A DNA stretch of 57,214 nt, from assembly GCA_000999465.1 (NCBI GenBank), contig LCGB01000001.1, positions 1 through 57,214 of the forward strand, given 5' to 3'. Numbering within the stretch: position 1 is the stretch's first letter; every line of letters starts with the position of its first letter. The notes beneath the pieces are model-generated. The model saw nothing but the letters and a program-made list of their open reading frames with translations, did not search any database and was not told the DNA's origin. A program made the translations under genes and the position numbers. Origin of the DNA: Candidatus Nomurabacteria bacterium GW2011_GWB1_43_19 (GTDB taxonomy: Bacteria > Patescibacteriota > Minisyncoccia > Phycocordibacterales > UBA9973). Positions 23,324 through 47,294 of the stretch are shown one piece after another.

Positions 23324-23368
23324 CTTCGCTAAAGCTTCGGCGGGCAGGCCCGCTTGGGCTTCAACTTG

Positions 23369-23439: not shown

Positions 23440-23495
23440 TTATGGCTTAAAAACTGAATTATCTTAACATAAAAAAGATAAATATTCTACTTCAT

Positions 23496-30971: not shown

Positions 30972-32059
30972 AACTCGTCGAAGATACAACTTTTGGAGGG
31001 GGTTTGCCGAGCGACGGCGAGGCAACTTCAGGATTTTTTAATCTTCAAAAAATCCGTACCCAGAAAAAGTTTGTACCGAGAAAGAGTTTAGGGCAAAATT
31101 TTTTAAAATCGGAACCGGCTTTAAAAAAAATTATTGAGGCGGGAGAAGTAAAAAAGGACGATATAATTTTGGAAATCGGACCGGGCAGGGGCAAGCTGAC
31201 GGAAAAACTTTTGGAGCGCGCCGGGCTCGTCATCGCCGTGGAAAAAGACCGCGAACTTTTTGAGTTTTTGAAAACAAAGTTTGAGAAAGAAATAGAAACA
31301 AATGCTTTTGTGTTAATTCATGGGGACGTATTGAATTTTGATGTTCGCGAAACAATTCTCAAATTTTTCTCAGGTCCTCGGATTTCCGGGTCCCTATCCC
31401 GGCCAGACCATTCGAAAAATTTAGAATTGCTTCGCTATAAAATCATCGCCAACATTCCTTACAACATTACCGGAGCGATACTTAGAAAGTTTTTGTCCGC
31501 CAAAGGCGGATCCGCCTCGGGCGGAAAAAAATTTCTGACCGCCCGGAACCAGCCGGAGCGGATGGTGTTGATGGTCCAGAAAGAGGTGGCTGAAAGAATT
31601 CTTGGCAGGAGAGAAAATATTTCATACTCAAAACCTAGCCATGGCAGAAAATTGGGTAAGGAAAGTATATTATCTATTTCCGTCAAGGCCTACGGGGAGC
31701 CCAAAATGATAATGAAAGTGCCGGCGCGATATTTCTCCCCGACGCCGCAAGTAGACTCGGCGGTGATTTTGATAAAAAATATTTCTAGGAAAAATTTTGA
31801 AATCCCAGCCCAGCCCTCCCCAAAGGAGAGGGAGAGATTTGGAGCCTCCCCTTTTGGGGGAGGTATGGAGGGGGTAAATGAAGAAAGATTCTGGAAAATA
31901 GTAAAAGCGGGCTTTGCGCACAAGAGAAAAAAACTCTCCGGCAACCTGAAAAACCTTGTTTCTTTGGAAAAAACGAACTTGGCGGTTTTTAAAGACAAAA
32001 GGGCGGAGGATTTATCCCTTACGGACTGGATTTTACTGGCCCGCACACCTAATTTATAA
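30968..32059 (+). CDS. rsmA: 16S rRNA (adenine1518/1519-N6)-dimethyltransferase RsmA/KsgA, expanded by repeat insertions
   Basis: SLGQNFL, LEIGPGRGKLT, IIANIPYNITG and a C-terminal helical domain. It is 363 aa (family members I recall are ~260-290 aa). ATGA overlaps the pcrA stop. Confidence 0.85.
   Translation: MKLVEDTTFGGGLPSDGEATSGFFNLQKIRTQKKFVPRKSLGQNFLKSEPALKKIIEAGEVKKDDIILEIGPGRGKLTEKLLERAGLVIAVEKDRELFEFLKTKFEKEIETNAFVLIHGDVLNFDVRETILKFFSGPRISGSLSRPDHSKNLELLRYKIIANIPYNITGAILRKFLSAKGGSASGGKKFLTARNQPERMVLMVQKEVAERILGRRENISYSKPSHGRKLGKESILSISVKAYGEPKMIMKVPARYFSPTPQVDSAVILIKNISRKNFEIPAQPSPKERERFGASPFGGGMEGVNEERFWKIVKAGFAHKRKKLSGNLKNLVSLEKTNLAVFKDKRAEDLSLTDWILLARTPNL
30990..31069. repeat. 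80-nt two-hairpin module, copy B (inside the rsmA 5' coding region)
   Basis: 67/80 identical to 1865-1944. The hairpin GGATTTTTT-7nt-AAAAAATCC is conserved, and the first hairpin differs by paired substitutions. Confidence 0.75.
31497..31524. repeat. GGATCC-centred double-hairpin element, copy inside rsmA
   Basis: CCGCCAAAGGCGGATCCGCCTCGGGCGG encodes SAKGGSASGGKK. It is 28/28 identical to the pnp copy in gene sense. Confidence 0.85.
31814..31863. repeat. CCCTC/GAGGG + CCTCCCC/GGGGAGG double hairpin inside rsmA
   Basis: CCCTCCCCAAAGGAGAGGG then CCTCCCC-TTTT-GGGGGAGG. It encodes PSPKERERFGASPFGGGMEG. Confidence 0.65.
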
Positions 32060-32220: not shown

Positions 32221-33075
32221 TTGTCAAAAACTTCATCGGTATTTAAAAATATAACAAACCCAGAATTGAATAATAATGAAAATCAAGGGCTGGTTTACAG
32301 TAATGCCTTAATAGGAGACCTGGTAAACATGGATACGGACGGGGACGGAGTGCTGGACTGGGAAGAATCTTTGTGGGGAACCGACCCGACCAAAAGAAAC
32401 ACCAACGATGACGGGACATCGGACTTTGTTGAAATAGAGAAGTTGAAAGCCGCGCAGGGCATAAGCGAACCAACCTGGTCGGAGCAAAATAACGAAAATT
32501 TGACGGAAACGGATAAATTTTCCAGAGAATTTTTCTCTACTGTTGTCGCCTTAAATCAGGCCGGAGTAATAGATGCAGCTACCGTGGACAAACTAGGAAG
32601 TACTCTCGCGGATGAAGTTAGTAATTCTGTACCGAGAAAAGTTTTCGCCATAAAAGATTTCAAGACGTCCGGCGATGACAAAAACTCCATCCAGATTTAT
32701 GGAAATGCCTTGGCTTCTATTTTTAATAAACACGCTATAAATATCAACGCGGGCGACATATTAGAAGAAGCTATAACCGAAGACGGGGAAATTGATGTGG
32801 AAGTTTTAAACAAGCTTGATCCTATCATTAAAAATTTTAATGGAATTATAAATGAGATGTCTAAAATAAATGTTCCACCATACTTTTTATCAGTCCATCT
32901 CCAGACCATAAATGGGCTTGAAAAGATAGCTGAAAATCTGGCCGACATAAAATTAATTGATAAAGACCCTTTGGCCGCTATGAGCGCCATGAGTCAATAT
33001 CCTAAAAATAATGAGGAGCTTCAAAGTTATATTGACACGCTGAATCAAAAAGGGGTGGAAAAATTGGGAAATTAA
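32221..33075 (+). CDS. Hypothetical protein with a thrombospondin-type-3-like Ca-binding motif, first gene of the T4SS-like cluster (start unresolved)
   Basis: Contains DTDGDGVLDWEE and TNDDGTSD. The frame stays open upstream to 32125 through a TM-like segment (TLWIAFAIVFLVALFL) with no ATG/GTG/TTG. Confidence 0.5.
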   Translation: MSKTSSVFKNITNPELNNNENQGLVYSNALIGDLVNMDTDGDGVLDWEESLWGTDPTKRNTNDDGTSDFVEIEKLKAAQGISEPTWSEQNNENLTETDKFSREFFSTVVALNQAGVIDAATVDKLGSTLADEVSNSVPRKVFAIKDFKTSGDDKNSIQIYGNALASIFNKHAININAGDILEEAITEDGEIDVEVLNKLDPIIKNFNGIINEMSKINVPPYFLSVHLQTINGLEKIAENLADIKLIDKDPLAAMSAMSQYPKNNEELQSYIDTLNQKGVEKLGN

Positions 33076-33088
33076 AAATAATAATCAA

Positions 33089-34576
33089 ATGATTTTTAAA
33101 AATAAAAGAATACAAAAATTTGTCTCCGGCCTGATGATTCTTTCCGTGTTGATTCCAGCCGTATTTATATCTGCCACCCCCAGGCAAGCCGAGGCCACCG
33201 GCTGGCCGGTAATAGATTTAGCCAATTTGGGTGCACAACTTAAGAAGATAGCTATAGAAATCGTCAAGCAGTACATGATACATATAGCCAGGAGTTTATT
33301 ACAACAAATGACCCAAAATACCGTTAATTGGATTAACAGCGGCTTTCACGGGAATCCGCTTTATCTGGAAAATCCCGATTCTTTCTTTAAAGACATAGCA
33401 AAATATGAAATTAGGAACTTGGTGGATATGTTCGGCTATGACCAGTTAAGATATCCCTTCGGTAAAGATTTTGCTTTAAACGCAATAGGCGCTTATCAAA
33501 GACAACTGGCTGACAATACCCAGTACAGTTTGAGTAAGGTTATTAACGATCCTATTTTTTTGGATAGTTTTAGAAACGACTTCAATGTCGGCGGATGGAA
33601 CGGCTTTTTGATTAATACGCAGTATCAACAAAATAATTATCTGGGGTTCCAGATGCTCGCAACCGAAGAATTGGCCAGACGCGTCCAGGGAACGAGCCAA
33701 ACCGCTACGCAAAAAGTGCAGACAACCTTACAGCAAGGGATGGGATTTTTGTCGCCAAAAACTTGTCCATCAAATCCCCTCTACAACAACGGTAAAAATG
33801 AATTTCTGCAGCCGAGTTTCAACTATAACCAATATCTAAAAGATCACCCATACGATTTTGAGGCGGCAAAAAAAAGTCCAACTTACGACATACTATATAG
33901 TGCCGGTATACAAGCCGCGGAACACGTCTGGAAACAAAAAAATACCTGCCCGGGCGGCCTAGTGGCTACCACTCCGGGTTCGGTGGTAGCCGGCACAATA
34001 ATGGAGGCGCTGGGTTCAAATACCCGTCAGGCAGAGCTTGGTACTGTTTCAGGTTCTATACAGGCAAGTATTGCAACTATTTTGGATGCCTTCTTAAATC
34101 ATTTCCTGCAAAAAGGATTAAATGCTTTGGGTAATAAAATTTATCCGCCCCAGGAAGACCAGACCCTGGATGACTTTATTTTCTTTGGTGATATGATAAA
34201 TACTGTTGGCGATGACATAGATACAAGCGTAACCCCGCTACCGGGTGACGGTATGCAACCACTATCTCTCCTTTCGGATGTTCAAGCCGAACGGGCAAAA
34301 TACGGAGCGATTGTACAAGACGCCGAACTGGGGGCGCTGTTAAATGCGGTGGCATGGAAAAATCGTGATGCGGGATGGGGTTTATCTCGCAAGGATTTTG
34401 GAGAACAATGCTCATCTCCGGTCGGACAGATTGCTTGTGATATCCTCTACCACAAACCGTCAAATACTATTTTTGACGTATTGTATGCCGCCGGTGAAGT
34501 ATCAACGCCAACATGGGACGCCCTCGGTCAAAATACCGACACAAGACGCCCTTGGGTGGCGCCGGTTCAACCATAA
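33089..34576 (+). CDS. Secreted hypothetical protein (signal peptide), T4SS-like cluster
   Basis: 495 aa with N-terminal LMILSVLIPAVFISATPRQAEA. The following WPVIDLANLGAQLKK...Q-rich helix is only weakly reminiscent of VirB5/TrbJ. Confidence 0.5.
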   Translation: MIFKNKRIQKFVSGLMILSVLIPAVFISATPRQAEATGWPVIDLANLGAQLKKIAIEIVKQYMIHIARSLLQQMTQNTVNWINSGFHGNPLYLENPDSFFKDIAKYEIRNLVDMFGYDQLRYPFGKDFALNAIGAYQRQLADNTQYSLSKVINDPIFLDSFRNDFNVGGWNGFLINTQYQQNNYLGFQMLATEELARRVQGTSQTATQKVQTTLQQGMGFLSPKTCPSNPLYNNGKNEFLQPSFNYNQYLKDHPYDFEAAKKSPTYDILYSAGIQAAEHVWKQKNTCPGGLVATTPGSVVAGTIMEALGSNTRQAELGTVSGSIQASIATILDAFLNHFLQKGLNALGNKIYPPQEDQTLDDFIFFGDMINTVGDDIDTSVTPLPGDGMQPLSLLSDVQAERAKYGAIVQDAELGALLNAVAWKNRDAGWGLSRKDFGEQCSSPVGQIACDILYHKPSNTIFDVLYAAGEVSTPTWDALGQNTDTRRPWVAPVQP

Positions 34577-34605
34577 AATATGAAAAAGTTTCTGCCTTAC
34601 ATTCT

Positions 34606-34711
34606 TGTCCCGTACTAAATTTTTGATTAAGTTATATAAAAATGAAAAAGGTTATAAAAGAAAAAAGTAAATCAAGAATAAAAACTAAAAGTAAAATTTT
34701 AGTACTGGGAT
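34606..34711. repeat. Inverted-repeat pair (24-mer + 20-mer), copy 2, bracketing the start of the VirB6-like gene
   Basis: TGTCCCGTACTAAATTTTTGATTA (34606-34629) and TAAAATTTTAGTACTGGGAT (34692-34711). The right arm lies in the signal-anchor codons KILVLG. Confidence 0.7.
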
Positions 34712-36990
34712 TAATACTGATAATCGCAGCCGGATTTTTTATCTCGGTACAAAATGTAAGCGCGCAAGAAGTAAAAAGGGCTTGCTATGATGGAGATTTT
34801 TTCTTTGTTTCAGGAGTCACAGATGAGACAGATTGCAAAAGCAGGGGCGCTGACCATCATTGGTGGACTTCGGCAGAAGCTGCGGCCGCTTTAACGGCTT
34901 CACGACAACGAGACCCTTCAAAGAAAATGTGTTTTGACTCAAAGGGATTTTCTACCAGCGCCACAACTGAAACAGAATGTTTAACTCCCGCGGGAAATGG
35001 AAATGTCTGGAGGACGGCGGCAGAACAAGCAGCGGCAAATGCGACAATATCAGCTAACCAGTCGCCATTTGACGCAGCAGTAAATCTTTCCAAGAACTCA
35101 TGCAATGTCACCCCCGTTGGTGGGGGCAGTTTTGTAGGATGCATATTGCAGTTCGTTTATTGGACTTTCTATACACTTGGAGCTTGGTTGCTGGCTATCG
35201 CTGCTTCTTTTTTCAACTACTTCATAAAAATCACCCTGGGCCCCGAGCTACTCAAGTCGGATTTCGTCTCCCATGCCTGGGGAGTGGTGCGGGACCTTTC
35301 AAATATTTTCTTCATTCTCATCCTGCTTTTTATAGCCATCAAAATTATTCTAGATCTAGGTGGAAGTGAGGCAAAAAAAATGATAGCCAAGGTTATAATC
35401 ATCGCCTTGCTCATAAACTTTTCCATGTTTTTCACCCACATGGTCATTGATTCTTCAAATATCTTGGCATTAATTTTTTACAATAAGCTTAATACGGTTG
35501 ATGAAAAAAATCCCAACAAGGCGGAACAGCTGATTGATTATGCCACTGGACAAAAAGACCTGGCCGGGGGACTGACCCAATCTTTCAACCCGGTATATAA
35601 ACTGGATAACAAATTCTTCACCGAGGCCAAAGAAATAAGAATACCGGGACGGCCCCCCATAAAGGAGCCGGTTTCAACTGGCACCTTGATCGGAATCACT
35701 GTGATAGCCGGAGCGATTATGCTCTTTGCCGCCTACGCTTTATTTATTTCAGCTTTGGCTTTTCTAGGCCGGTTGATTGAACTTTTTGTATTAATCATTT
35801 TTTCGCCCTTTGCTTTTATGTCTTTTGCCGTACCAAAACTAGCTGGTATTGAATACTTGGGGTGGGGGGCTTGGTCTAAGCGCCTGCTTACGGTGTCATT
35901 TATGGCGCCGATTTTCATGTTTTTCCTTTACTTCATATTCTTATTGCTGGGGGAAAGCGAAGGGAAAAACATGTTTACCGACTCCCTAAAGGGAGAAGGG
36001 ATGGTGCGGACACTTTTGAGTATAATAATTCCGGCCATGGTGGTTTTGATTCTGCTTCTGAAGGCAACTGAATTCGCCAAAAAGGGCTCTGGGACGTTCG
36101 GGGAAGCTATTATAAAAGGAGGAAAAATGGTGGCGGGTGTTGCCGGAGGGCTTGCCTTGGGAGCCGCGACCGGCGGAGCAGGGTTCGCGCTCAGGGCCGG
36201 AATTGGAGGCGTAGGGGGAACCCTTGCTAATAAAACAGCTTCGGGGGTAAACTGGCTCGCGAAGAAAGATAGTTGGATAGGCAAGGGAGCAAGAGGATTG
36301 GGAGCCAATAGGATTGCCAGCGGGCTGACATATGCGGGCGCATTGGCGCAAAGGAGCAGTTTTGACCTTCGCGCCGGTGGCGGATTGGCTAGAATGACTG
36401 GCCTTAATATCGGCCAGGCACAGAAGGGCGGAAGAGAACAAGCAAGGAAAGATAAAGTGGAAAAAAGACAAAAGAGGGCAAATATGCTCAAGGTTAGAGA
36501 TGATGAAAGTATAAGCAAAAAGATAAGAGCTAAGGAAATGGACTTGCAAGTAATGTTAAATAAGGTTGCCGGAGATTTTCATACATTAGATGAAGCAATA
36601 AAAGATAAAAGACAAGACAAAAGAGACGAAACAGACCCAGTAGAAAAAAGAAGGATTACCAATGAAATTAAAGAACTATTAGCTGTAAAAAAGACTATAA
36701 AATCAGGAGGGGTGGCAACTCTGGCCGCGGGGAAACTGGGCGCTGGCTCTGCCGCAAGAACCTTTACGGGGCCAACACAGAATGGTGAAACTATCAAAAG
36801 TTTGTCAAATTCTAATAATGGCATAATCACAGAACTAAAAAACAAAAAAGAACTTGAGAGCAGGAGAAGGACGACTGCTTTTGCTAAAAGAACAGGAAGA
36901 TGGTACAAGGGATCGGCCAACAAACAAGCAAAGTATGAAATAATTATGGAGTCAAAAATAGCAACTCCAGGGGAAGACCATTCAACATAA
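34642..36990 (+). CDS. Polytopic membrane protein, VirB6/TrbL-like
   Basis: 782 aa: signal anchor, Cys-rich extracytoplasmic domain, at least 6 TM helices, a Gly-rich segment and a charged C-terminal tail. The assignment rests on architecture and its position next to VirB4. Confidence 0.5.
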   Translation: MKKVIKEKSKSRIKTKSKILVLGLILIIAAGFFISVQNVSAQEVKRACYDGDFFFVSGVTDETDCKSRGADHHWWTSAEAAAALTASRQRDPSKKMCFDSKGFSTSATTETECLTPAGNGNVWRTAAEQAAANATISANQSPFDAAVNLSKNSCNVTPVGGGSFVGCILQFVYWTFYTLGAWLLAIAASFFNYFIKITLGPELLKSDFVSHAWGVVRDLSNIFFILILLFIAIKIILDLGGSEAKKMIAKVIIIALLINFSMFFTHMVIDSSNILALIFYNKLNTVDEKNPNKAEQLIDYATGQKDLAGGLTQSFNPVYKLDNKFFTEAKEIRIPGRPPIKEPVSTGTLIGITVIAGAIMLFAAYALFISALAFLGRLIELFVLIIFSPFAFMSFAVPKLAGIEYLGWGAWSKRLLTVSFMAPIFMFFLYFIFLLLGESEGKNMFTDSLKGEGMVRTLLSIIIPAMVVLILLLKATEFAKKGSGTFGEAIIKGGKMVAGVAGGLALGAATGGAGFALRAGIGGVGGTLANKTASGVNWLAKKDSWIGKGARGLGANRIASGLTYAGALAQRSSFDLRAGGGLARMTGLNIGQAQKGGREQARKDKVEKRQKRANMLKVRDDESISKKIRAKEMDLQVMLNKVAGDFHTLDEAIKDKRQDKRDETDPVEKRRITNEIKELLAVKKTIKSGGVATLAAGKLGAGSAARTFTGPTQNGETIKSLSNSNNGIITELKNKKELESRRRTTAFAKRTGRWYKGSANKQAKYEIIMESKIATPGEDHST

Positions 36991-36994
36991 ATTT

Positions 36995-37555
36995 ATGATA
37001 ACTGAAAAATCAAAAGCAATTATAAAAGAAGAAATGTTGGCCCTGCCAAAAGAAGTACGGGAAGCCGTTGAACTTTCTAATTGGGAAAAAATATCTGAAG
37101 AAATCGGCAAGAAATACCTGCTGGATGAAGATGAAATAGAGACCTTGCAGTTGGAAACGGCTTCTTTCCTGCTCGGCTTGGTAGACGAGGACGCATACCC
37201 GAGAGATATTGAAGACGAGGTGGGCACCAGCCGGGAAGAGGCCGAAAAAATATCCGGGGAAATCTTTGAAAAGATATTTGAGCCGATAGACAGCGCGATA
37301 ACTGAAAATATAAAAAGGAGCGGAAAAGATAAAAGCCCGAAGCCGGACCAAACGATTGATTTCATTCTCTCCGGCGGAGATTATTCCAATTTTCTGGAAG
37401 AGAGGGAAACACAGACCCCCTCTGGCTCCCCCTTAGTAGGGGGAGAGGAATCCTCCCGCCCTACGAAGAGAGGGGTTGGGGAGGGTCAAAATCAAACAAA
37501 TGCGCCGGTCAAACCACGGACAATCACGGACATAAAAAGCAAATTCACCGTATAA
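36995..37555 (+). CDS. Acidic hypothetical protein (paralogue of 37595-38281)
   Basis: 186 aa sharing LQLETASFLLGLVDEDAYPRDIE...EEAEKISGEIFEKIF with the next ORF (EIETELLLCGLVSSQDYPKELE...AEANELVVEMNKEVF). Confidence 0.55.
   Translation: MITEKSKAIIKEEMLALPKEVREAVELSNWEKISEEIGKKYLLDEDEIETLQLETASFLLGLVDEDAYPRDIEDEVGTSREEAEKISGEIFEKIFEPIDSAITENIKRSGKDKSPKPDQTIDFILSGGDYSNFLEERETQTPSGSPLVGGEESSRPTKRGVGEGQNQTNAPVKPRTITDIKSKFTV
37426..37484. repeat. CTCCCCC/GGGGGAG + CCTCCC/GGGAGG double hairpin inside the 36995 ORF
   Basis: CTCCCCC-TTAGTA-GGGGGAG then CCTCCCGCCCT-ACGAAGAG-AGGGGTTGGGGAGG. It encodes GSPLVGGEESSRPTKRGVGEG. Confidence 0.65.
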
Positions 37556-37594
37556 TATTGTAGTTATAAAGTTCATAAAGTAAAAAACAAAAAA

Positions 37595-38281
37595 ATGCAG
37601 GATACAATAGATTTATTGCAAATAAAAATTGAGAGGGCTAAAGCGCAGTTGTCCGAAGACACGCTTGGTGCCATTGCCACCGTTCCGTGGCAAGCGGCTA
37701 TTCTTAAAATGAGAGAAACAAAGGGATACAGCTTTGAGCAACTAAATGATTTGGAGATTGAAACGGAACTCTTGCTTTGCGGGCTTGTATCTTCCCAGGA
37801 TTACCCGAAGGAACTGGAAAATAGGATGAAAGTTTCCAGAGCGGAAGCGAACGAGTTGGTGGTGGAAATGAATAAGGAGGTTTTCTCAAAGATAAAGGAA
37901 GAATTGATTAAAATTACCGAACGAAAAAAAATGTCTGGGAAAAATTCTCCTCTTGAGGAGTACCCGGCAGGGAGAGGTGGACAGAATCCATCCACTCTGT
38001 CTCTACAAGCCACCCCTCAAGAGGGAAATAGACACGACACCACCAAAGAGGAAAAAACAAACACCCAAGTATTGAAATCAGCCGGGATTGAAATAACAAA
38101 CGGGAGAGAAAAAAGCGAAATACACCAGATATTGGCGCGAAAATTATCCGGTCCTTTCCAAATTCCATCGGTAAAAACCGAGCACACTTTGGAAAATATT
38201 ACAAAAACAGGTGTCTCATCTCCTGTAAACACGCAAACCGACAAGCCGCGCTTGGATCCTTATAGGGAAGTGCCTGAATAA
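37595..38281 (+). CDS. Hypothetical protein (paralogue of 36995-37555)
   Basis: 228 aa. The N-terminal half aligns with the previous ORF. The C-terminal half carries the inverted pair CCTCTTGAGG (37948) / CCTCAAGAGG (38012). Confidence 0.55.
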   Translation: MQDTIDLLQIKIERAKAQLSEDTLGAIATVPWQAAILKMRETKGYSFEQLNDLEIETELLLCGLVSSQDYPKELENRMKVSRAEANELVVEMNKEVFSKIKEELIKITERKKMSGKNSPLEEYPAGRGGQNPSTLSLQATPQEGNRHDTTKEEKTNTQVLKSAGIEITNGREKSEIHQILARKLSGPFQIPSVKTEHTLENITKTGVSSPVNTQTDKPRLDPYREVPE

Positions 38282-38285
38282 GAAT

Positions 38286-38714
38286 ATGCAATTCAAAGTT
38301 CCACAATTTTTAGACATAGAAGACAAAATTTTCGGCCCTTTTACTTTCAGGGAATTTGTTTATCTGGCGGGCGGGGCTGGGTTGTGCTTTATTATTTATA
38401 AATTGCTGGGGCTCATTCTGGGAACCATACCGATTCTGATTATTGCCGGTTTTTCTTTGTTGCTCACTTTTTACCGCCCCAATAATAAGCCCTTCGTTAA
38501 TATGATTGGGGCGGGATTCAAATATTTTACGCAAAACAAACTTTATATTTGGAAAAAGGACAAAGAGAAAGACAAAACGAAGCGGCCGCCCGCATCCAAG
38601 GATGAAATTAAAATCAGAATGATGTCGGAGGAAGGATTAAACGGGAGCAAACTTAGAGATTTGGCCTGGAGTTTGGATGTGCTTGATTTGAGTAGGCATA
38701 AAAATGAGTTATAA
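38286..38714 (+). CDS. PrgI-family / VirB3-like small membrane protein
   Basis: 142 aa. MQFKVPQFLDIEDKIFGPFTFREFVYLAGG followed by two TM helices is the PrgI-family pattern found next to Gram-positive VirB4 genes. Confidence 0.6.
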   Translation: MQFKVPQFLDIEDKIFGPFTFREFVYLAGGAGLCFIIYKLLGLILGTIPILIIAGFSLLLTFYRPNNKPFVNMIGAGFKYFTQNKLYIWKKDKEKDKTKRPPASKDEIKIRMMSEEGLNGSKLRDLAWSLDVLDLSRHKNEL

Positions 38715-38799
38715 AGTCATCAAGTAAAAAGTTTATCAAGTAAATATAATAAAAATTCAATGCAACTTTATAACTTTAAGAACTTTATAACTTTCAACT
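38708..38799. repeat. AT-rich imperfect palindrome of AAGTnATnAAGT units (site 4)
   Basis: GTTATAAAGTCATCAAGTAAAAAGTTTATCAAGTAAA faces CAACTTTATAACTTTAAGAACTTTATAACTTTCAACT. CAACTTTATAACTTT is shared with site 2. Confidence 0.55.
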
Positions 38800-38807
38800 A
38801 GACATTT

Positions 38808-39446
38808 ATGGCACTAAAAGCAAAAGCAACACAAGAATTTATACCGATTAAGGAGGTACGGGATGGAGTCGTCGTGCTAAAAAACGGCGACCTGCGCGCC
38901 ATCGTGTTGGCCAACTCAATAAATCTCTCCCTGAAATCTATCGACGAACAGAAAGCCACCATAATGGAATTCCAGAATTTCCTCAACACACTTGATTTTT
39001 CCGTGCAAATATCGGTCCAATCCAGAAAGCTGGATATTCGACCCTACCTTTTGCTTCTGGAAGACAGAATTAAGGTGCAAAACGAGCCCTTGCTTAAACT
39101 ACAAACCAGGGAATACATAGAATTCATCAGAAATTTTACCGAATCGGTCAGCATAATGACAAAAAGTTTCTTTGTGGTGGTCCCTTACACGCACACCATC
39201 TTGAAGTCGGATTCCGGAATATTTGGGAGGATGTTTTCCGGAAAAAGTAAGGAAGAGGCGCGGCTGGCAAAACAGGTGGACTTTGAAGAAAAGAGGTCGC
39301 AGTTGGAAGAAAGAGTGTTGGTCATCCAGCAAGGACTCGGGCGCTGTGGCATCAATTCGGCCCAGCTGGGCACTGAGGAAGTCGTGGAAGTGTTTTATAA
39401 GGTCTTCAATCCGGGGGCGGTAGAAGGAAAGATAAGGTTGGAATAA
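38808..39446 (+). CDS. Stand-alone protein resembling a Firmicutes-type VirB4 N-terminal domain
   Basis: 212 aa. ATQEFIPIKEVRDGVVVLKNGDLRAIVLANSINLSLKSIDEQKATIMEFQNFLNTLDFSVQISVQS matches the N-terminal pattern of TrsE/TcpF-type VirB4 as I recall it. Confidence 0.4.
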   Translation: MALKAKATQEFIPIKEVRDGVVVLKNGDLRAIVLANSINLSLKSIDEQKATIMEFQNFLNTLDFSVQISVQSRKLDIRPYLLLLEDRIKVQNEPLLKLQTREYIEFIRNFTESVSIMTKSFFVVVPYTHTILKSDSGIFGRMFSGKSKEEARLAKQVDFEEKRSQLEERVLVIQQGLGRCGINSAQLGTEEVVEVFYKVFNPGAVEGKIRLE

Positions 39447-39450
39447 ATAT

Positions 39451-41301
39451 ATGATGGATTTTTTCAAAAAATTATTCAAAAAACAAAATGCGGTTTCTGC
39501 GCCGGAAACGCAAACCTCTATCCTGGCGGTTTTGCCGGAAGAAATTTATGAATCCGCTAATCTGGAACTGCAGGATGTCATTGCGCCATCGGCGCTAAGG
39601 ATCGAATCGAAGTCCATCAACCTGGGTGAGAAAATCGCCCGGACTTTTTTTATAATATCTTATCCGCGATTTCTGACCGATAATTGGTTTTCTCCGATAA
39701 TCAATCTGGATAAAGTTTTTGATATCTCAATTTTTATTCATCCGATAGACACCTCGCTGATGCTCCGGCAATTTCAGAAAAAAGTCGCGGAGGTGCAGAG
39801 CCAAATAAATGTACGCGAAGGCAAGGGAATGGTGCGCGACCCGATGCTGGACACCGCCTATCAAGATCTGGAAGGGCTTCGCGACAATTTGATACAAGCG
39901 CAGGAAAAAATGTTTGATGTTGGTGTTTACATTACAATTTACGCGGACAACGAACTGGAGCTTTTCAAAATTGAAAGTGAGATAAAATCAATGCTGGAAT
40001 CAAAACTTATATACATCAAACCGGCGCTTTTTCAGCAAGAAGAAGGGTTTAAAAGCGTTCTCCCGATAAATACGGACTTATTAAATATCCATCAAAAACT
40101 AAACTCGGAACCGCTTTCCAGTATATTCCCGTTCATATCTTTTGACCTGACTTCCAGCCGAGGAATACTTTACGGTATCAATCGGCATAATTCCAGTTTG
40201 GTTATTTTTGACCGATTTTCATTGGAAAATTACAACTCGGTGACCTTTGCCAAGGCGGGCGCCGGGAAATCCTACGCGACAAAATTGGAGATACTAAGGT
40301 CTTTGATGTTTGATGTGGATGTTATTGTGATAGACCCGGAAAAAGAATATGAATTTCTGGCGGAAGCCGTCGGTGGAAGATATTTCAGTATTTCTCTTTC
40401 ATCCGACCACCACATTAACCCTTTTGACTTGCCGATGCCACGCGAGGATGAAACCGCCGAAGATGTTTTGCGTTCAAATATCATTAATCTGGTCGGATTG
40501 TTCAGATTGATGTTGGGTGGCCTAACCCCGGAAGAGGACTCAATGGTTGATCGGGCTATTTCGGAGACATATGCCATAAAAGATATCACTCCGGAATCCG
40601 ACTTTTCAAATATTGAGCCACCGCTCCTTTCCGATTTTGAAATGGTGCTTTCGGGAATGGATGGAAGCGATTCGGTTGTGCAAAGACTGGTAAAATACAC
40701 AAAAGGTTCCTGGGCAACATTCTTAAACCGGCCGTCCAATGTGGATATTAATAAAAAATTCATCGTGTTTTCGGTCCGGGATATGGAAGACGAATTAAAG
40801 CCGGTGGCAATGTATATTATCATGCATTACATCTGGAATGCCATCCGCAAAAATCTGAAAAAGCGTCTGATGGTGGTAGACGAGGCGTGGTGGATGATGA
40901 AGTCCGAGGATACGGCGTCATTTTTGTACTCTATCGCCAAAAGAGGCAGAAAATATTACTTGGGCCTTTCTACTATCACCCAGGACGCGGCTGATTTTTT
41001 GAACTCTCCTTACGGAGTTCCGATTATCACCAACTCCTCCATTCAACTGCTTTTGAAGCAGTCCCCGACCACGATTGATTTGTTGCAAAAAACTTTCAAC
41101 CTCACAGATGAAGAAAAATATCTGCTTTTGGAGTCAAATGTCGGAGAAGGGATATTCTTCGCCGGCTTAAAACATATCGCCATAAAAACCATCGCTTCTT
41201 ACACCGAAGACCAGATCATTACTTCCGATCCTTCTCAGATATTATCCAACAGAAAAGCCAAGGAAGAACATGAAGCGGCCGATATGGCAGGAAAACAATG
41301 A
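39451..41301 (+). CDS. virB4: VirB4-family type IV secretion ATPase
   Basis: 616 aa with Walker A AKAGAGKSYATK, Walker B LMVVDEAWWMM and a C-terminal ITQDAADF motif. Confidence 0.85.
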   Translation: MMDFFKKLFKKQNAVSAPETQTSILAVLPEEIYESANLELQDVIAPSALRIESKSINLGEKIARTFFIISYPRFLTDNWFSPIINLDKVFDISIFIHPIDTSLMLRQFQKKVAEVQSQINVREGKGMVRDPMLDTAYQDLEGLRDNLIQAQEKMFDVGVYITIYADNELELFKIESEIKSMLESKLIYIKPALFQQEEGFKSVLPINTDLLNIHQKLNSEPLSSIFPFISFDLTSSRGILYGINRHNSSLVIFDRFSLENYNSVTFAKAGAGKSYATKLEILRSLMFDVDVIVIDPEKEYEFLAEAVGGRYFSISLSSDHHINPFDLPMPREDETAEDVLRSNIINLVGLFRLMLGGLTPEEDSMVDRAISETYAIKDITPESDFSNIEPPLLSDFEMVLSGMDGSDSVVQRLVKYTKGSWATFLNRPSNVDINKKFIVFSVRDMEDELKPVAMYIIMHYIWNAIRKNLKKRLMVVDEAWWMMKSEDTASFLYSIAKRGRKYYLGLSTITQDAADFLNSPYGVPIITNSSIQLLLKQSPTTIDLLQKTFNLTDEEKYLLLESNVGEGIFFAGLKHIAIKTIASYTEDQIITSDPSQILSNRKAKEEHEAADMAGKQ

Positions 41302-41352
41302 AGCAGGCATTAGATCTAGGCGTTAGACCTTAGTAAATGATATAATTGAAAT

Positions 41353-42339
41353 ATGAGGTTAAAATTTTTATTTATATTTTTAATTACGGGATTTATGGTA
41401 ATGGGAATTATTTTACCGTTAAAGACCAACGCCGCCTCGTCTAGTAGTATTTTAGTGAATATAGCGCCTGAAAATCCGGCTCCAAATGAAAATGTAGACA
41501 TTAATTTGAGTAGTTACGCCTATAATTTGGACAATGTTTTGATATCGTGGTCGGTAGACGGTAAAAATTCTTTGTCGGGGATTGGTAGAAAATCTTTCTT
41601 GATAAACGCCCCGGCCGCCGGCTCGGAAACAAGTGTCGTGGCTATGATTTCTTTGCCGGACGGCGCAGTAGATATAAGAATAATAATAAGGCCCGCTATT
41701 ATGGTGCTACTCTGGCAGGCAAATGACTCGTATGTTCCGCCTTTTTATAGGGGCAAGGCAATGCCGACACCGGACAGTGAAGTGAAAGTGGTGGCTATGC
41801 CGGAAATAAAAAGCGGTTCTACTTTTGTTGATTCAAAAAATATGACTTACGCTTGGAAACAGGATTACAATAATGACCAAGAAGCTTCAGGTTATGGTAA
41901 AAATTCTTTTATTTATATGAATGATTACCTGGACAACTCAAACAACATCTCGGTCACGGCTTCAACCATAGACCAAAAGTATTTCTCGGAGGCAAGTTTG
42001 GATATAGGAACAACCCAGCCAAAGATTTTATTTTACAAAAATGACGCCAATCTGGGAACAATCTGGGAAAAAGCGCTCTCTAACGGACATAAAATAACGG
42101 GTGATGAAATTGTGGAGGCGGTTCCGTATTTTATATCACCAAAAGACATACGGATTCCGATATTAACTTGGAACTGGTTTATTAACGACAGTTTGGTAAA
42201 TATCCTTGGTTCCAGAAAAAATTTGATGCCGCTTAAAATAGAGGCTGGGGTTTCCGGGACAGCAAAAATAAAACTGGAAGTTAATAATACTTACAAGGTT
42301 TTTGAATCGGCCAGCAAGGAAATCAGCGTGGAATTTTAA
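41353..42339 (+). CDS. Secreted hypothetical protein (signal peptide; beta-rich)
   Basis: 328 aa with MRLKFLFIFLITGFMVMGIILPLKTNA, then repetitive beta-strand-like sequence. It is part of the T4SS-like operon. Confidence 0.55.
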   Translation: MRLKFLFIFLITGFMVMGIILPLKTNAASSSSILVNIAPENPAPNENVDINLSSYAYNLDNVLISWSVDGKNSLSGIGRKSFLINAPAAGSETSVVAMISLPDGAVDIRIIIRPAIMVLLWQANDSYVPPFYRGKAMPTPDSEVKVVAMPEIKSGSTFVDSKNMTYAWKQDYNNDQEASGYGKNSFIYMNDYLDNSNNISVTASTIDQKYFSEASLDIGTTQPKILFYKNDANLGTIWEKALSNGHKITGDEIVEAVPYFISPKDIRIPILTWNWFINDSLVNILGSRKNLMPLKIEAGVSGTAKIKLEVNNTYKVFESASKEISVEF

Positions 42340-42349
42340 AATAAAAATA

Positions 42350-43633
42350 ATGAAAAAATATTTTTCTTACATTTTAATACTAATCGCGCTAACGATAGGA
42401 CTGTCGGTTCCAATATTTAGCGTAAATGCACAGTATGCGGGGGCAGGAGTATGTTGGAAATCAGGACTTGTTGTTGACGGAACCCTTGCCCAACCAATGA
42501 ATTCTGTATCAGATTGCAATAGAGTTGGTGGAACTTGGCAAGCTCCGGGAACCTCGGTCCCCCTTCCTCCTAACGGGCCGGCCGCCCCCACAACACCGGC
42601 GCCAACCGAACCACCAAACCCTCCTATGGGCGGGGCATGCCGATGGCACTTGGACAGGTTTCATAGCGAGGGTGAAATTGACACTAGCAACCCCCCGCTT
42701 ACTAAAGAGCAGTGTGATTTGAATTCTCCCCATACTTACTGGGATCCAAGCGCAACGCCGGCACCAAAACCGCCGGCACCACTACCAGGGACACCTATTC
42801 CAATACCATCAGCTCCTCCCTTAACGCCCTATCAGCTCTTGGCCCCACTGCCTTGTGAAAGTGGCCCAGGGTGTGTTGAAAAACAACTTACAACCTTTGA
42901 CACTACGGGTAAAGGTGGGGGAGCTTTGGGCGGATACTTAAACCTAATGATCAAACTCTTCATCGGCATCTGCGCCGTTCTGGCTGTGATAATGATAGTA
43001 ATAGGCGGAATTCAGTATATGACTACCGAACTGATATCAAGCAAGGAAGAGGGTAAGAAAAGAATACTGGGAGCGATTTTTGGACTGCTTTTAGCACTTG
43101 GCGCTTATACGCTTTTGTACACGATTAATCCCAATTTGTTAAAAAGCGATTTGTCAAAATTAATCGATGTAACAGTGGAAGTGGACTTAAATGATAATAT
43201 CGCACAAACATACGACCCAGTAACTAAAAAATACCGGAATGGAGCCGTTTTTGGTGCAAGTTGGGATGCCACCAGAGGGGAGTTTGCTGATTTGGCAGCC
43301 AGTGGCGCAACTATTTACAATTCGCAGTGTACAACAATAGGCCAACAAAATTGCACATCAACCAGGGGGCTTGATCCAAGTGTTTTAAATACGATACACC
43401 AACAATGCCCTGATTGCACACTAATAATCACCGGTGGAACAGAGTTTTGGGCGCATGGCGGCACAACAGGAAGCACTAATCATCAAGTTGGCAATACAAC
43501 AATAGATCTTAGGCTTAACCCTGCTTTAGATGCATATTTATCGGGCGGAAAACCCTTAGTCAAAATGCAAAGATACCAATCACCTGTTGGCTCAGTATTA
43601 TACGAGGGAAATCATTGGCATATCGGCCCATAA
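42350..43633 (+). CDS. Fusion-like protein: signal peptide, Pro-rich spacer, VirB2/TrbC-like TM hairpin, C-terminal LAS/M15-like zinc peptidase
   Basis: ATG at 42350. LMIKLFIGICAVLAVIMIVIGGIQYMT...ILGAIFGLLLALGAYTLLY is pilin-like. STNHQVGNTTIDL and EGNHWHI resemble HxxG..D / HxH of LAS hydrolases. Confidence 0.45.
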   Translation: MKKYFSYILILIALTIGLSVPIFSVNAQYAGAGVCWKSGLVVDGTLAQPMNSVSDCNRVGGTWQAPGTSVPLPPNGPAAPTTPAPTEPPNPPMGGACRWHLDRFHSEGEIDTSNPPLTKEQCDLNSPHTYWDPSATPAPKPPAPLPGTPIPIPSAPPLTPYQLLAPLPCESGPGCVEKQLTTFDTTGKGGGALGGYLNLMIKLFIGICAVLAVIMIVIGGIQYMTTELISSKEEGKKRILGAIFGLLLALGAYTLLYTINPNLLKSDLSKLIDVTVEVDLNDNIAQTYDPVTKKYRNGAVFGASWDATRGEFADLAASGATIYNSQCTTIGQQNCTSTRGLDPSVLNTIHQQCPDCTLIITGGTEFWAHGGTTGSTNHQVGNTTIDLRLNPALDAYLSGGKPLVKMQRYQSPVGSVLYEGNHWHIGP

Positions 43634-43639
43634 TATTTT

Positions 43640-45196
43640 ATGTCAAAAAGAAATTCTACACTTTTAATAATAATCCTGGCTCTAATAATAATCGGGTTTT
43701 TCGGATTTTTATATTTCCAAAAAAGTCCAGCGGCTCCGACGGAAGAAGGTCCGGGCACGAATTTTTTCTCGCAGTTCAACCCGTTTGGAGCAAGCAAACC
43801 GATGCCTTCGCCCGTAACGCCTCCGGTGGACATCTCCGGATATGAACCCGAGCTCGGGTCGGAGATAATAGGTGCAAAATTAATGAAAGTTTCGAGCGTT
43901 CCTGTCGCGGGATTTATAGTATTTCAAAAAGAAAGATTAATAGATGTGCCGATTATTATACCAACAACAACTCCGAGCGCGCCCTACGATTTCGGCAGCA
44001 CTACCCTTAAAAATGGAAGCGTCGGCGGGGCGGTAGAAGAAATTCAAAGGTTTTTAAACGACACGCTTAGTCTGGGCTTGGAGCCCGATGGCGTATTTGA
44101 TACGGAAATAGCTGATGTGATTAAACAATGGCAGAGTGACAACAAACTGGTTGCCGATGGTATCGTCGGCGCAAAAACAAAAGCACAAATGTATTCTTCG
44201 GTGAACCAAAAAATGGAAACGACAAAACCGACTCCGCCCTTGACTGAATTTGTGCCGGCTGTAAGGTATGTTGACAAAGCAACAGGAAATATTTACCAAA
44301 CTTTTACGGACAAAATAGAAGAGAGAAAATTTTCAACAGCGCTAATTCCTAAAGTTTACGAAGCGTTTTTCGGGAGTAAGGGCGAGTTTGTGGTTATGAG
44401 ATATTTAAACGCGGACGGCAGAACAGTTGAGACCTTTGTCGGCAATCTGCCGAAGGAACACTTGGGCGCAGATACGACTCCCGACGAAATAAAAGGTTCC
44501 TTTCTGCCGAAAGACGCAAAAGATGTAAGCGTGTCGGCGAACGCCGAGAGTATCTTCTATCTGTTTAATGTCGGAGATAATATGGTGGGTACCACCCTTA
44601 ACTTGTTAAATAATAAAAAAGTTCAAGTTTTTGATTCACCTTTCGCCGAATGGTTGTCGTGGTGGCCGAACAATAAAATGATTACCTTGACCACCAGACC
44701 CGCGTACGGCATACCGGGATATATGTATGGGGTAGACCCGACGAGCAGCAATAAACATCTGAACAAAATTTTTGGCGGTATAAACGGACTTACCACGCTC
44801 CCAAGTCCCAATGGAAAGTTGGTTCTCTACGGCGATGGCGGTTTGTCACTTAGTGTTTATCACACGGATACAAAGGTTTCGGACTTGTTGGGAACCCGAA
44901 CTCTGCCGGAAAAATGCGTCTGGGACAGAGCAAGTGACGCGGTTTATTGCGCGGTGCCTAAATTTATCGGCGCAGCTCAATATCCGGATATCTGGTATCA
45001 GGGAGAAGTGTCTTTTTCGGACCAACTTTGGAAAGTGGACATAGTGAACGGAAATGCTACCTTGCTTTTGGACCCAATCACAATTACCAACGGAGAAGAA
45101 ATTGACGGCATAAAACTTTCTCTTGATGAAAACGAAAATTATTTATTTTTTGTAAATAAAAAGGACTCCTTCTTGTGGAAACTTAATCTGAAATAA
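43640..45196 (+). CDS. Membrane-anchored protein with a peptidoglycan-binding (PG_binding_1) domain and a beta-propeller-like C-terminus
   Basis: GSVGGAVEEIQRFLNDTLSLGLEPDGVFDTEIADVIKQWQSDNKLVADGIVGAKTKAQM is a classic PG-binding repeat. The C-terminal region is TolB-like and beta-rich. Confidence 0.6.
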   Translation: MSKRNSTLLIIILALIIIGFFGFLYFQKSPAAPTEEGPGTNFFSQFNPFGASKPMPSPVTPPVDISGYEPELGSEIIGAKLMKVSSVPVAGFIVFQKERLIDVPIIIPTTTPSAPYDFGSTTLKNGSVGGAVEEIQRFLNDTLSLGLEPDGVFDTEIADVIKQWQSDNKLVADGIVGAKTKAQMYSSVNQKMETTKPTPPLTEFVPAVRYVDKATGNIYQTFTDKIEERKFSTALIPKVYEAFFGSKGEFVVMRYLNADGRTVETFVGNLPKEHLGADTTPDEIKGSFLPKDAKDVSVSANAESIFYLFNVGDNMVGTTLNLLNNKKVQVFDSPFAEWLSWWPNNKMITLTTRPAYGIPGYMYGVDPTSSNKHLNKIFGGINGLTTLPSPNGKLVLYGDGGLSLSVYHTDTKVSDLLGTRTLPEKCVWDRASDAVYCAVPKFIGAAQYPDIWYQGEVSFSDQLWKVDIVNGNATLLLDPITITNGEEIDGIKLSLDENENYLFFVNKKDSFLWKLNLK

Positions 45197-45286: not shown

Positions 45287-45793
45287 TCAGATTGTTCCCA
45301 CGTATTTAATCACCACCCGGCGAGCATATCCCGTGCCTACTGACTCGGTCTTTAGGTCAATTGCGTCGGATAAAAATTCGTGGATAATCCTGCGTTCAAA
45401 AGCCGACATCGGGTCAACTTCTATGTTGGATTTGAAATATCTCGCCCTTTCCGACATCATGTGAGCCACTGCGCGGATGTTTTCTATGTGTTTCTTTTGA
45501 AAGCCGTTTATGTCAATGAGAAGGCCTAAACCTTGTTGCTGCCGCATGTCGGACCTGGGGGATTCCCCCAAGTCCGACATGCGGGGGGTTTTTGTCTCAA
45601 TAATTCTGCGAACAATGTGGTTTAAGGCTTGCAGGCCTTCGCCGTCCCGTCCCACAAAAAAATGAGGTTCGTTAACTTCCACAGAAACCCATATGTTTTG
45701 AGTTCCGTCTTCGGTAACGGAAATATCATTTAATTTTACCGTGGTTTTTTCAACCAAATCTTTTATTAAATTTTTTATTTCTTCTTTTTCCAT
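45287..45793 (-). CDS. jag: Jag/SpoIIIJ-associated RNA-binding protein (KH + R3H)
   Basis: ATG at 45793 (MEKEEIKNLIKDL), 1 nt after the yidC stop. The C-terminal ERRIIHEFL...GTGYARRVVI is an R3H motif. Confidence 0.8.
   Translation of the reverse strand: MEKEEIKNLIKDLVEKTTVKLNDISVTEDGTQNIWVSVEVNEPHFFVGRDGEGLQALNHIVRRIIETKTPRMSDLGESPRSDMRQQQGLGLLIDINGFQKKHIENIRAVAHMMSERARYFKSNIEVDPMSAFERRIIHEFLSDAIDLKTESVGTGYARRVVIKYVGTI
45542..45584. repeat. GTCGGAC-TGGGGG palindromic element inside jag
   Basis: CCGCATGTCGGACCTGGGGGA-T-TCCCCCAAGTCCGACATGCGG (20/21 arm pairing). It encodes PRMSDLGESPRSDMRQ and shares its core with the xerC element. Confidence 0.8.
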
Positions 45794-45794
45794 G

Positions 45795-46550
45795 TTATTT
45801 TTCCCCGACGCTATAATTTTTAGTAAAGGTCGGGGTCCCGACTTCACGTCGGGACTTAACATAAATCTGTTGTCCCACCATAAAAATGTTACTGGTAATC
45901 CAATAAAGCGCCACGGCACCGGAAATACTGTAAGCGATAAAAGCAACGATAAACGGGAATATATATTTCATTTGCGTATGCATACTTTTGGCAAAAGAGT
46001 CCGAAAAGGAGCCGGTGGAGCCGCTTGGGGTAGGGGCGGGCTTTGGCATAAAGTGGGCCTGTAAATACTGGGACACCCCCGCCAGAATTGCCAAAACCAT
46101 ACTCTTCTGGCTTATATCTATAACCCCCAGGAAAATCATATTTATACTTTCGGGAATATGAATAAAAGAATAGAGAAGCCCGTTTTCAAAACTAAGCCCT
46201 TTGAAGAAAACAAAATACAGAGCAAAAATAATGGGAATTTGGATTAACACCAAGAGGCACCCGGAAAACGGGTTGGTTTTGTGTGTTTTATAAAGTTCAA
46301 AAGTCAGCTTGGCCTGTTCTTCTTTGCTTTTACCGCTTGTCTTTATTTTATTAAGTTCGGGAGCCAGCAGATTCATCTGGGCCTGGCTTTCAATAGATTT
46401 TTGGGAAAGAGGAAAAAGTATGATTTTAACGAGAATGGTGAGAACAATAACCGCGACCCCAACGTCTCCGCCAGGGATAATTGACACCAAAAAGGCCAAG
46501 GCGTTCAATAATGGCTTATATAAAATGGTATCCCAGATGCTTGAAAGCAT
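45795..46550 (-). CDS. yidC: Membrane protein insertase YidC (short Gram-positive type)
   Basis: 251 aa, 5 TM, with conserved ...NPFSGCLLVLIQIPIIFALY... and position upstream of jag. Confidence 0.9.
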   Translation of the reverse strand: MLSSIWDTILYKPLLNALAFLVSIIPGGDVGVAVIVLTILVKIILFPLSQKSIESQAQMNLLAPELNKIKTSGKSKEEQAKLTFELYKTHKTNPFSGCLLVLIQIPIIFALYFVFFKGLSFENGLLYSFIHIPESINMIFLGVIDISQKSMVLAILAGVSQYLQAHFMPKPAPTPSGSTGSFSDSFAKSMHTQMKYIFPFIVAFIAYSISGAVALYWITSNIFMVGQQIYVKSRREVGTPTFTKNYSVGEK

Positions 46551-46649
46551 TGTCCCATTCTACCCCGAAGTAAAATTTTTAGCAAAATTTACCGCCTTAG
46601 GTGTTGGACACCAAGAATTCGGGTGTCCAACACCTGGAATCACCTGAAA

Positions 46650-46871
46650 CTATTTTACCGGATCTATGTGATTCTTTTGCCAAGGGTGGCAACGCAGGAT
46701 GCGTAAGATTCCTAAATAGACACCTTCAAGGACGCCGTATTTTTTTACCGCTTGTTTGGTGTATTCGGAGCAAGTGGGATAAAAAACACAACTGGGCTTT
46801 TTAAAAAAGCTTATTTTTCTCTGGTAGAAATTAATTAATTTTATTAACAATATTTTTAATTTCATTTTCAA
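46650..46871 (-). CDS. yidD: Membrane protein insertion efficiency factor YidD
   Basis: 73 aa with CVFYPTCSEYTKQAVKKYG...LRILRCHPW, the YidD signature. Confidence 0.8.
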   Translation of the reverse strand: MKMKLKILLIKLINFYQRKISFFKKPSCVFYPTCSEYTKQAVKKYGVLEGVYLGILRILRCHPWQKNHIDPVK

Positions 46872-47157: not shown

Positions 47158-47159
47158 AC

Positions 47160-47294
47160 TTAAACGGATAATTTTTTCCTGCCTTTTTGACGCCTTCTCG
47201 CCAGCACATTCCGGCCGGTTTTTGTTTTGGATCTGACTAAAAATCCGTGGGCCTTGGCTCTTTTTCTCTTTTTTGGTTGATATGTTTGCGACAT
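47160..47294 (-). CDS. rpmH: 50S ribosomal protein L34
   Basis: My translation gives [44 protein letters not shown] (44 aa). It is masked in the ORF track by a longer out-of-frame ORF. Confidence 0.9.

Follow-up and report, generated by a model that had tools for sequence, protein, structure and literature searches.

What is a type IV secretion system (T4SS) for when its genes stand beside dnaA and include neither a relaxase nor a coupling protein? The question is posed by eleven genes (g1 to g11) at positions 32221-45196 of a 57-kb stretch of DNA from Candidatus Nomurabacteria bacterium GW2011_GWB1_43_19 (contig LCGB01000001.1, positions 1 to 57,214; hereafter the window), which a preliminary description made from the sequence had read as an origin-proximal, T4SS-like and chromosomally fixed machine. 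The evidence set out below identifies the cluster, very probably, as the T4SS of the Patescibacteria clade in its Paceibacteria ('Ca. Nomurabacteria') form, derived from the MPF_FATA type, vertically inherited beside dnaA and uncoupled from relaxases. Few machines are known to be indispensable for epibiotic life in this huge and mostly uncultured bacterial radiation, and the Patescibacteria T4SS is one of them. The main points at issue (a monoderm-type T4SS, the absent relaxase, proximity to dnaA, a non-conjugative role and essentiality for epibiotic growth) were already published in 2023 and 2025; the window offers a clean and complete case from Paceibacteria, which bears out the earlier work without adding anything fundamental.

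The VirB4 motor and its place beside dnaA

All eleven open reading frames (ORFs) of the preliminary description were recovered on the plus strand, co-oriented and separated by intergenic gaps of 4-93 nt, a spacing that is operon-like (Table 1). The gene taken for the VirB4 ATPase, g8, matched the NCBIfam family 'VirB4-like conjugal transfer ATPase, CD1110 family' (conju_CD1110) above its cutoff (2.7e-108, 363 bits against 325), the Pfam families P-loop_TraG (4e-25) and AAA_10, and the solved VirB4 C-domain of PDB 4ag5 (3.6e-38), with intact Walker A (AKAGAGKS) and Walker B (LMVVDE) motifs. Its alignment with PrgJ of pCF10 (4e-42) was confined to PrgJ residues 228-772, and g7 matched the N-terminal part of NCBIfam VirB4_plasma (4e-9), TrsD/TraD (2e-5) and positions 1-102 of CD1110. 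Because g8 aligns only from PrgJ residue 228 and g7 matches VirB4 N-parts and TrsD, the two genes represent a split VirB4 in the TrsD arrangement, in line with the stand-alone VirB4 N-domain first proposed for g7. The score of g6 for the PrgI family exceeded the gathering cutoff (GA), as expected of the PrgI/VirB3-like protein it had been called. Five of the eleven genes could be tied to T4SS families, and the statement that most components had no recognisable family was thus overstated.

Homologues of g8 numbered more than 8000; the best 120 were 88-100% identical to it, and every named one among them came from Patescibacteria ('Candidatus Nomurabacteria', Paceibacterota, Minisyncoccia and Patescibacteria metagenome-assembled genomes). 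The protein was 78% identical to VirB4 of RAAC4_OD1_1, a genome within the dataset in which Quinonero-Coronel et al. (2025, Microb Genom; PMC12102498) delineated a VirB4 clade that is monophyletic, lies within MPF_FATA and occurs in 2417 of 3035 Patescibacteria genomes. Genes 531/533/534/535/537 of RAAC4_OD1_1 (our locus L059) are collinear with g3/g6/g7/g8/g10 and were called VirB6, VirB3, TrsD (FATA_TrsD), VirB4 and VirB2, respectively, in that study (PMC12102498, Table S3), which also located TrsD, PrgI/VirB3, VirB6 and VirB2-like genes near the virB4 of the clade and reported that the T4SS of Paceibacteria and Microgenomatia lies close to dnaA, dnaN, rnpA, ksgA and rpmH. In a 2025 review, the Patescibacteria system is counted as a new addition to the T4SS superfamily (PMC12857230).

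Among conjugative systems, the Prg/Pcf genes of pCF10 from Enterococcus faecalis offer the closest comparison at hand: both have a CD1110-family VirB4 and a PrgI-family protein, both lack outer-membrane core components, and the order PrgH-PrgI-PrgJ-PrgK(lysozyme)-PrgL is collinear with the polytopic protein, PrgI, VirB4 and putative cell-wall hydrolase of the window. The separate TrsD gene of the window is, in turn, typical of the pGO1 subclass (pGO1/pIP501 Trs/Tra). The window differs from pCF10 in that the VirD4-like PcfC, the relaxase PcfG, PcfB and the adhesin PrgB have no counterpart in it and no similarity to PrgH or PrgL was detectable, whereas it has a VirB2-like pilin domain, which is missing from Gram-positive systems; moreover, its cluster is chromosomal, fixed and vertically inherited.

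The conservation of the arrangement was followed in a scan of one genome per species, which found a relative in at least 593 genomes and from which 80 loci (L001-L080) were kept; counts out of 45 refer to the species-level loci with full 10-kb flanks. Genes g3, g6, g7 and g8 were present in all 45 (median identity of 54% for g6, 69% for g7 and 84% for g8) and g9, g10 and g11 in 44, while yidC and dnaA were found in 43 and dnaN in 42, with the same order and orientation, so that the synteny check called for at the outset returned the core g3 and g6-g11 together with yidC-dnaA-dnaN in 42-45 of the 45 loci. The acidic paralogues were less regularly detected (g4 in 22 and g5 in 24 loci by tblastn), most of the other loci having a g4/g5-like gene at the position of g5, and g1 was seen in 32, the others being cut by the flank limit. 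VirB4 was the most conserved protein of the region, its median identity comparing with 75% for DnaA, 67% for DnaN and 63% for YidC; it was the more conserved of the two in 57 of 59 loci when compared with DnaA, in 55 of 55 with DnaN and in 63 of 63 with YidC, an unusually strong constraint for a secretion ATPase. The cluster is bordered by rsmA on the left and by jag, yidC, rnpA and dnaA, followed by dnaN, on the right, as had been described; in each of the 20 related loci with sufficient flank, rsmA preceded g1 by no more than 1.5 kb, and in G+C content the cluster (0.428) does not differ from its surroundings (0.424 for the window). These comparisons point to an operon that is chromosomal, inherited vertically and under strong constraint rather than to a mobile element, and the proposal of a fixed chromosomal machine was borne out by a gene order beside dnaA that is kept in essentially all related species-level genomes examined.

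The same data bear on the possibility that the cluster is what is left of an integrative and conjugative element after decay or domestication, stripped of relaxase, coupling protein and integrase and devoid of a function of its own. Such an origin would suit a VirB4 of conjugative CD1110/MPF_FATA type, the lack of any relaxase or coupling protein among our matches, and a tyrosine recombinase gene upstream. That gene, the only tyrosine recombinase of the window, is of XerC/D type and lies 15 kb upstream, not adjoining the cluster; no integrase adjoins it either, the borders in relatives being rsmA and jag. Decay is at odds with eleven intact and tightly spaced ORFs, with synteny at the same chromosomal site in 45 species-level genomes, with a VirB4 more conserved than DnaA, with a G+C content matching the chromosome and with the essentiality of the homologous cluster in Ca. 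Southlakia (see below). The remnant explanation is largely refuted, and we give it almost no credence.

Transfer genes and the possible cargo

The statement that the cluster has no relaxase, coupling ATPase, plasmid replication gene or adjoining integrase was upheld throughout the 57-kb window: ORFs of at least 100 aa gave no Pfam match to a relaxase, to VirD4/TcpA or to a plasmid replication protein, and BLASTP with two pCF10 proteins, PcfC (coupling protein) and PcfG (relaxase), gave no match in the window or in the 80 related loci. 'Without coupling protein' nevertheless holds only locally, since genes resembling type IV coupling proteins (T4CP; t4cp1, 87-88% profile coverage) are present at other chromosomal sites in RAAC4_OD1_1 and other Nomurabacteria (PMC12102498). 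Together with the observation that T4CP genes often lie far from virB4, as most T4CP-like genes of Patescibacteria do (PMC12102498), this is what speaks for a working conjugation or chromosome-transfer system that would combine a distant T4CP with an unrecognised relaxase. We regard such a system as highly improbable: only 109 relaxases were counted in 3035 Patescibacteria genomes, unlinked to the T4SS of the clade (PMC12102498); in Ca. Southlakia the T4CP-like gene is not essential although the T4SS is (PMC12102498); and the location beside dnaA is fixed in all relatives, unlike that of a mobile element.

The closest known system is the homologous cluster, delimited as SEML1_0005-0019 or SEML1_0006-0019, with which the chromosome of Ca. 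Southlakia epibionticum begins (Wang et al. 2023, Cell; PMC10633639). It was described as a T4SS that resembles Gram-positive conjugative systems most closely, whose pilins are essential and in which no coupling protein or relaxase was recognisable, and transposon sequencing showed it to be essential for epibiotic growth. Both clusters lie next to dnaA, with no relaxase or coupling protein among their genes, and both have a core of PrgI, TrsD-like and VirB4 genes preceded by a VirB6-like gene (in the window the candidate g3); genes for envelope proteins and for known or putative cell-wall hydrolases come after this core, and pilin domains of family PF18895 occur in both. The organism of the window belongs to Paceibacteria and Ca. 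Southlakia to Saccharimonadia, and the clusters differ accordingly in detail: the window has one pilin-domain gene fused to a putative hydrolase module where Ca. Southlakia has an array of six small pilins, the acidic paralogues g4 and g5 are placed between the VirB6 candidate and PrgI, and the accessory envelope proteins (thrombospondin-type g1, immunoglobulin-like g9 and peptidoglycan-binding g11) are not the same.

Importers built on VirB4 exist, and the cluster could be a DNA-uptake machine comparable to archaeal Ced/Ted or Helicobacter ComB, taking in host or environmental DNA as a source of nucleotides or for transformation. Like the cluster, Ced/Ted is a machine with a VirB4-family ATPase and no relaxase, in cells without an outer membrane, and g8 does have a weak match to CedB (2e-7, 30 bits); that score is far under the cutoff of 700, though, the VirB4 of the window probably belongs to a different clade, and neither CedA-like nor ComB7-10-like genes nor other Ced accessory proteins were recognised, in searches that included no CedA profile. 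The lack of nucleotide synthesis in Patescibacteria (PMC10633639) and the co-localisation of T4SS loci of the class ABY1 with comF/recG/radA (PMC12102498) would also fit uptake. Against it stand the separate type IV pilin-like genes of the window (see below) and the genetics of Ca. Southlakia, in which competence needs comEC and type IV pili (T4P) and a comEC deletion is viable. Because competence is thus ComEC-dependent and dispensable there while the T4SS is essential, we judge DNA uptake improbable, by extrapolation from one class to another; it seems more likely that proteins are exported into or onto the host, or that host material is imported.

Under the reading that we favour, a T4SS devoted to the epibiont-host contact, g3, g6, g7 and g8 would form the cytoplasmic-membrane translocon, g10 would contribute a pilin-like conduit or anchor and remodel peptidoglycan locally in the role of VirB1, and g1, g2, g9 and g11 may form or decorate the extracellular part. 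The machine would act at the site of contact with the host cell, moving macromolecules (protein export or import of host material) and not conjugating DNA, and by extrapolation across classes it would be needed for epibiotic growth, as in Ca. Southlakia epibionticum. For a cultured member, a 2026 preprint described tubular structures that penetrate its host and may be T4SS pili, and proposed uptake of host RNA (bioRxiv 10.64898/2026.06.21.733656). The non-conjugative, chromosomally fixed character of the cluster is supported by agreement with the published view (PMC10633639; PMC12102498; PMC12857230).

Several observations weigh against this reading or parts of it. Function is carried over from another class, Saccharimonadia, and not from the genetics of Paceibacteria, and the T4CP-like genes elsewhere in related genomes leave room, from sequence alone, for a role in DNA transfer or uptake. 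The exact sequence of the locus occurs in groundwater and soil metagenomes, and none of it was found in the metatranscriptome runs of the same studies. No VirB8-like component was found in the cluster. The pilin domain of g10 is embedded in a protein of about 430 aa and may therefore be a membrane anchor, not a polymerising pilin. Finally, the VirB6 label of g3 was pursued by four routes, none of which gave a match: 25 family members against Pfam (no TrbL), the family profile against all PDB sequences (TrwI/VirB6 entries included), Foldseek of its AlphaFold 2 (AF2) model (pLDDT 74) against PDB, and hhalign of a 48-sequence profile against pCF10 PrgH.

In g3, the polytopic nature that had been described stands, with a signal/transmembrane (TM) segment, a small Cys-rich ectodomain, about six long TM helices, a Gly-rich linker and a large, hydrophilic, helical C-terminal domain. 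The VirB6/TrbL identity is a different matter: the profile searches that confirmed g6 as PrgI/VirB3 placed g3 in no family, nor did the fold search. The gene at the position of g3 in RAAC4_OD1_1 was nonetheless called VirB6 with the CONJScan T_virB6 profile at 73% coverage (PMC12102498, Table S3), and g3 is retained here as a VirB6 candidate on its topology, its position and this published hidden Markov model match in an orthologue, a label that sequence and fold comparisons in this work left unconfirmed.

The pilin-domain protein g10 and its putative cell-wall enzyme module

Of the pilin/peptidase fusion proposed for g10, the pilin part was well supported. The hairpin corresponds to the VirB2-like T4SS_pilin domain with two TM helices (PF18895), preceded by a conserved YxLLAPLP motif; the window copy scored slightly below the GA of 26.6 bits (24.2 bits, ~3.5e-5 to 3.7e-5), while T4SS_pilin matched 22 of 24 orthologues (best 1e-8) and TrbC/VirB2 matched five. 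The ORF, which is also readable from TTG 42302, is the sole one in the window with a pilin domain, and a single pilin-domain gene was likewise found in 69 of the 72 related loci that had any; loci L016, L067 and L073 had two.

The peptidase part was assigned from conserved motifs and positional equivalence, with no profile match. The C-terminal module measures ~150-230 aa, and a Pfam search with the C-termini of 66 orthologues identified NlpC/P60 in 12, VanY in eight, Amidase_5 in six (probably the same members as those matching NlpC/P60), YkuD in five, SLT-type domains in four, Peptidase_M15_4 in three and CHAP in one. The module of the window type, common to about 12 relatives, matched neither Pfam nor PDB sequences; it has four invariant Cys residues and invariant E-x-W-x-H, H-x7-D and H-x-H motifs, which resemble the metal site of LAS/M15 enzymes. 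Given these motifs and the place that it shares with the recognised enzymes, the C-terminal domain of g10 is a putative metallo-peptidoglycan hydrolase.

The modules belong to unrelated enzyme families, and their type was distributed patchily, as genomes with a VirB4 at least 89% identical to that of the window carried SLT-like, VanY, NlpC/P60, YkuD or window-type modules. Such a distribution among close relatives points to frequent exchange of the module, always at one place in an operon that is very conserved in other respects, and exchange of this kind would fit adaptation to different host cell walls. We tentatively propose, as a possibility that is still rather doubtful, that the three-part g10 (ectodomain, the only pilin hairpin and a repeatedly swapped peptidoglycan enzyme) acts as a 'drill' matched to the host wall and determines host range. 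If so, the type of module would decide whose envelope the epibiont is able to breach, in a way comparable to tail lysins of phages, and a swappable cell-wall enzyme fused to a pilin domain would be a concrete, testable candidate for host-envelope specificity. VirB1 homologues were reported to be associated with virB4 in Paceibacteria in a study that did not describe a pilin fusion (PMC12102498), and full-text literature searches found no description of a fusion between a pilin domain and a peptidoglycan enzyme; the fusion and the swapping of its module therefore seem to be possibly unreported, a modest lead.

Other proteins of the cluster and the surrounding chromosome

The coordinates and main features of the cluster and of its conserved neighbours are given in Table 1.

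Table 1 Genes of the T4SS cluster and conserved neighbours in the window.
Feature	Coordinates	Strand	Description
rsmA/ksgA	30968..32059	+	Conserved left neighbour; Pfam RrnaAD 1e-46
g1	32221..33075	+	Acidic; bacterial thrombospondin-type-3/EF-hand-like Ca-binding motif (DTDGDGVLDWEE)
g2	33089..34576	+	Secreted; signal peptide ending AEA/TG; hydrophobic N-terminus
g3	34642..36990	+	Polytopic membrane protein, VirB6 candidate, 'extended VirB6' architecture
g4	36995..37555	+	Small acidic cytoplasmic protein, paralogue of g5; ~110-aa conserved N-terminal domain, disordered tail
g5	37595..38281	+	Paralogue of g4
g6	38286..38714	+	PrgI-family (VirB3-like) membrane protein; Pfam PF12666 4.6e-8, 33.9 bits (GA 27)
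g7	38808..39446	+	TrsD-like, detached N-terminal domain of VirB4; directly upstream of g8
g8	39451..41301	+	VirB4 ATPase, MPF_FATA/CD1110 type, without N-domain
g9	41353..42339	+	Secreted or anchored; two Ig/FnIII-like beta-sandwich domains, middle part unmodelled
g10	42350..43633	+	Signal peptide, Pro-rich variable ectodomain, YxLLAPLP motif, pilin hairpin, C-terminal Cys-rich domain
g11	43640..45196	+	N-terminally anchored; PG_binding_1 insert (residues 129-184); conserved ~300-aa C-terminal domain
jag/khpB, yidC, rnpA; dnaA, dnaN	45287..50069	- (jag/khpB, yidC, rnpA); + (dnaA, dnaN)	Conserved right neighbours

Among the accessory proteins, the Ca-binding motif noted in g1 was recovered as a match to Pfam TSP3_bac (5.5e-4 in the window copy, 7.6e-9 in orthologues). 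Orthologues of g1 begin with a TM helix (TLWIAFAIVFLVALF), and because the window encodes a TM segment in frame at 32125-32220, before TTG 32221, the true start is probably upstream of 32221 and the protein is probably membrane-anchored; no ATG, GTG or TTG precedes this segment, suggesting a non-canonical start codon or a sequence error. Signal-peptide-like N-termini were seen in g2, g3, g9 and g10, consistent with the secretion predicted for g2 and g9. The g2 family has a conserved N-terminal domain of ~350 aa, with invariant W81, G168-G169-W170, N182-N183 and Cys residues in the family alignment, and a C-terminus that varies among species (323-1094 aa in relatives); neither Pfam nor PDB sequences were matched, the family profile included. 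The two acidic proteins g4 and g5 are indeed paralogous (BLASTP 3e-10), with no TM segment and no Pfam or NCBIfam match.

The description of g9 as a beta-rich protein agreed with its AF2 model (pLDDT 63), in which tandem immunoglobulin (Ig)-like beta-sandwiches were linked by Foldseek to generic Ig/fibronectin type III (FnIII) tandems; its family profile matched no PDB sequence. A VirB8-type (TcpC/PrgL-like NTF2) identity of g9 was considered and rejected on the Ig-like model and on an hhalign probability of 0.3% against PrgL. As for g11, said to be a peptidoglycan-binding beta-propeller protein, the first half held for the window copy (PG_binding_1, 9e-12), the insert being present in only three of 25 family members and so not a family feature. 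The propeller rests on SPDG-type motifs and weak PD40/WD40 matches of single members, by which the C-terminal domain may be a candidate PD40/TolB-like beta-propeller; hhalign against E. coli TolB returned a probability of 3%, and the family profile matched no PDB sequence. In locus L007, a paralogue of g11 lies on the opposite strand between rsmA and g1.

Two ORFs of 634 and 324 aa upstream of rsmA (26044-28804, overlapping at 27830-27948), rich in Lys/Glu coiled-coil and Pro-rich stretches and without a Pfam match, were considered as an upstream extension of the cluster and rejected, being absent from 80 of 80 related loci; they could represent an insertion specific to this strain or a single gene split by a frameshift. 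On the other side, rnpA (46831-47313) was listed at 160 aa compared with 106-108 aa in relatives, and with the RNase P domain beginning at residue 56 its true start is probably internal to the listed ORF; rpmH was not located.

Two adjoining DnaA boxes were located at 47313-47332, with no enrichment of such boxes across the window, and a scan for promoters and terminators gave no enrichment over shuffles. The cumulative GC skew reached its minimum at ~22 kb (21000-23500), at a cluster of four tRNA genes, while dnaA and the DnaA boxes lie at 47 kb. With oriC at dnaA, transcription of the 13-kb T4SS operon would run toward the origin and head-on to replication; with oriC near 22 kb, transcription and replication would be co-directional.

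The remaining window is ordinary chromosome, encoding RNase Y, PNPase, MetK, the CCA-adding enzyme, PBP1, RuvC, YebC and a class I (Trp/Tyr-type) tRNA synthetase in addition to the four tRNAs. Two genes (5214-5822 and 20118-20612) have an N-terminal methylation motif as in type IV pilins or pseudopilins and belong to a different apparatus, for T4P or competence. Genes for N4/N6 DNA methyltransferases were also observed at two sites (2990-4337 and 13521-14854), one beside a PD-(D/E)XK nuclease-like gene, with which it likely forms a restriction-modification pair, and the other beside an NYN-domain gene.

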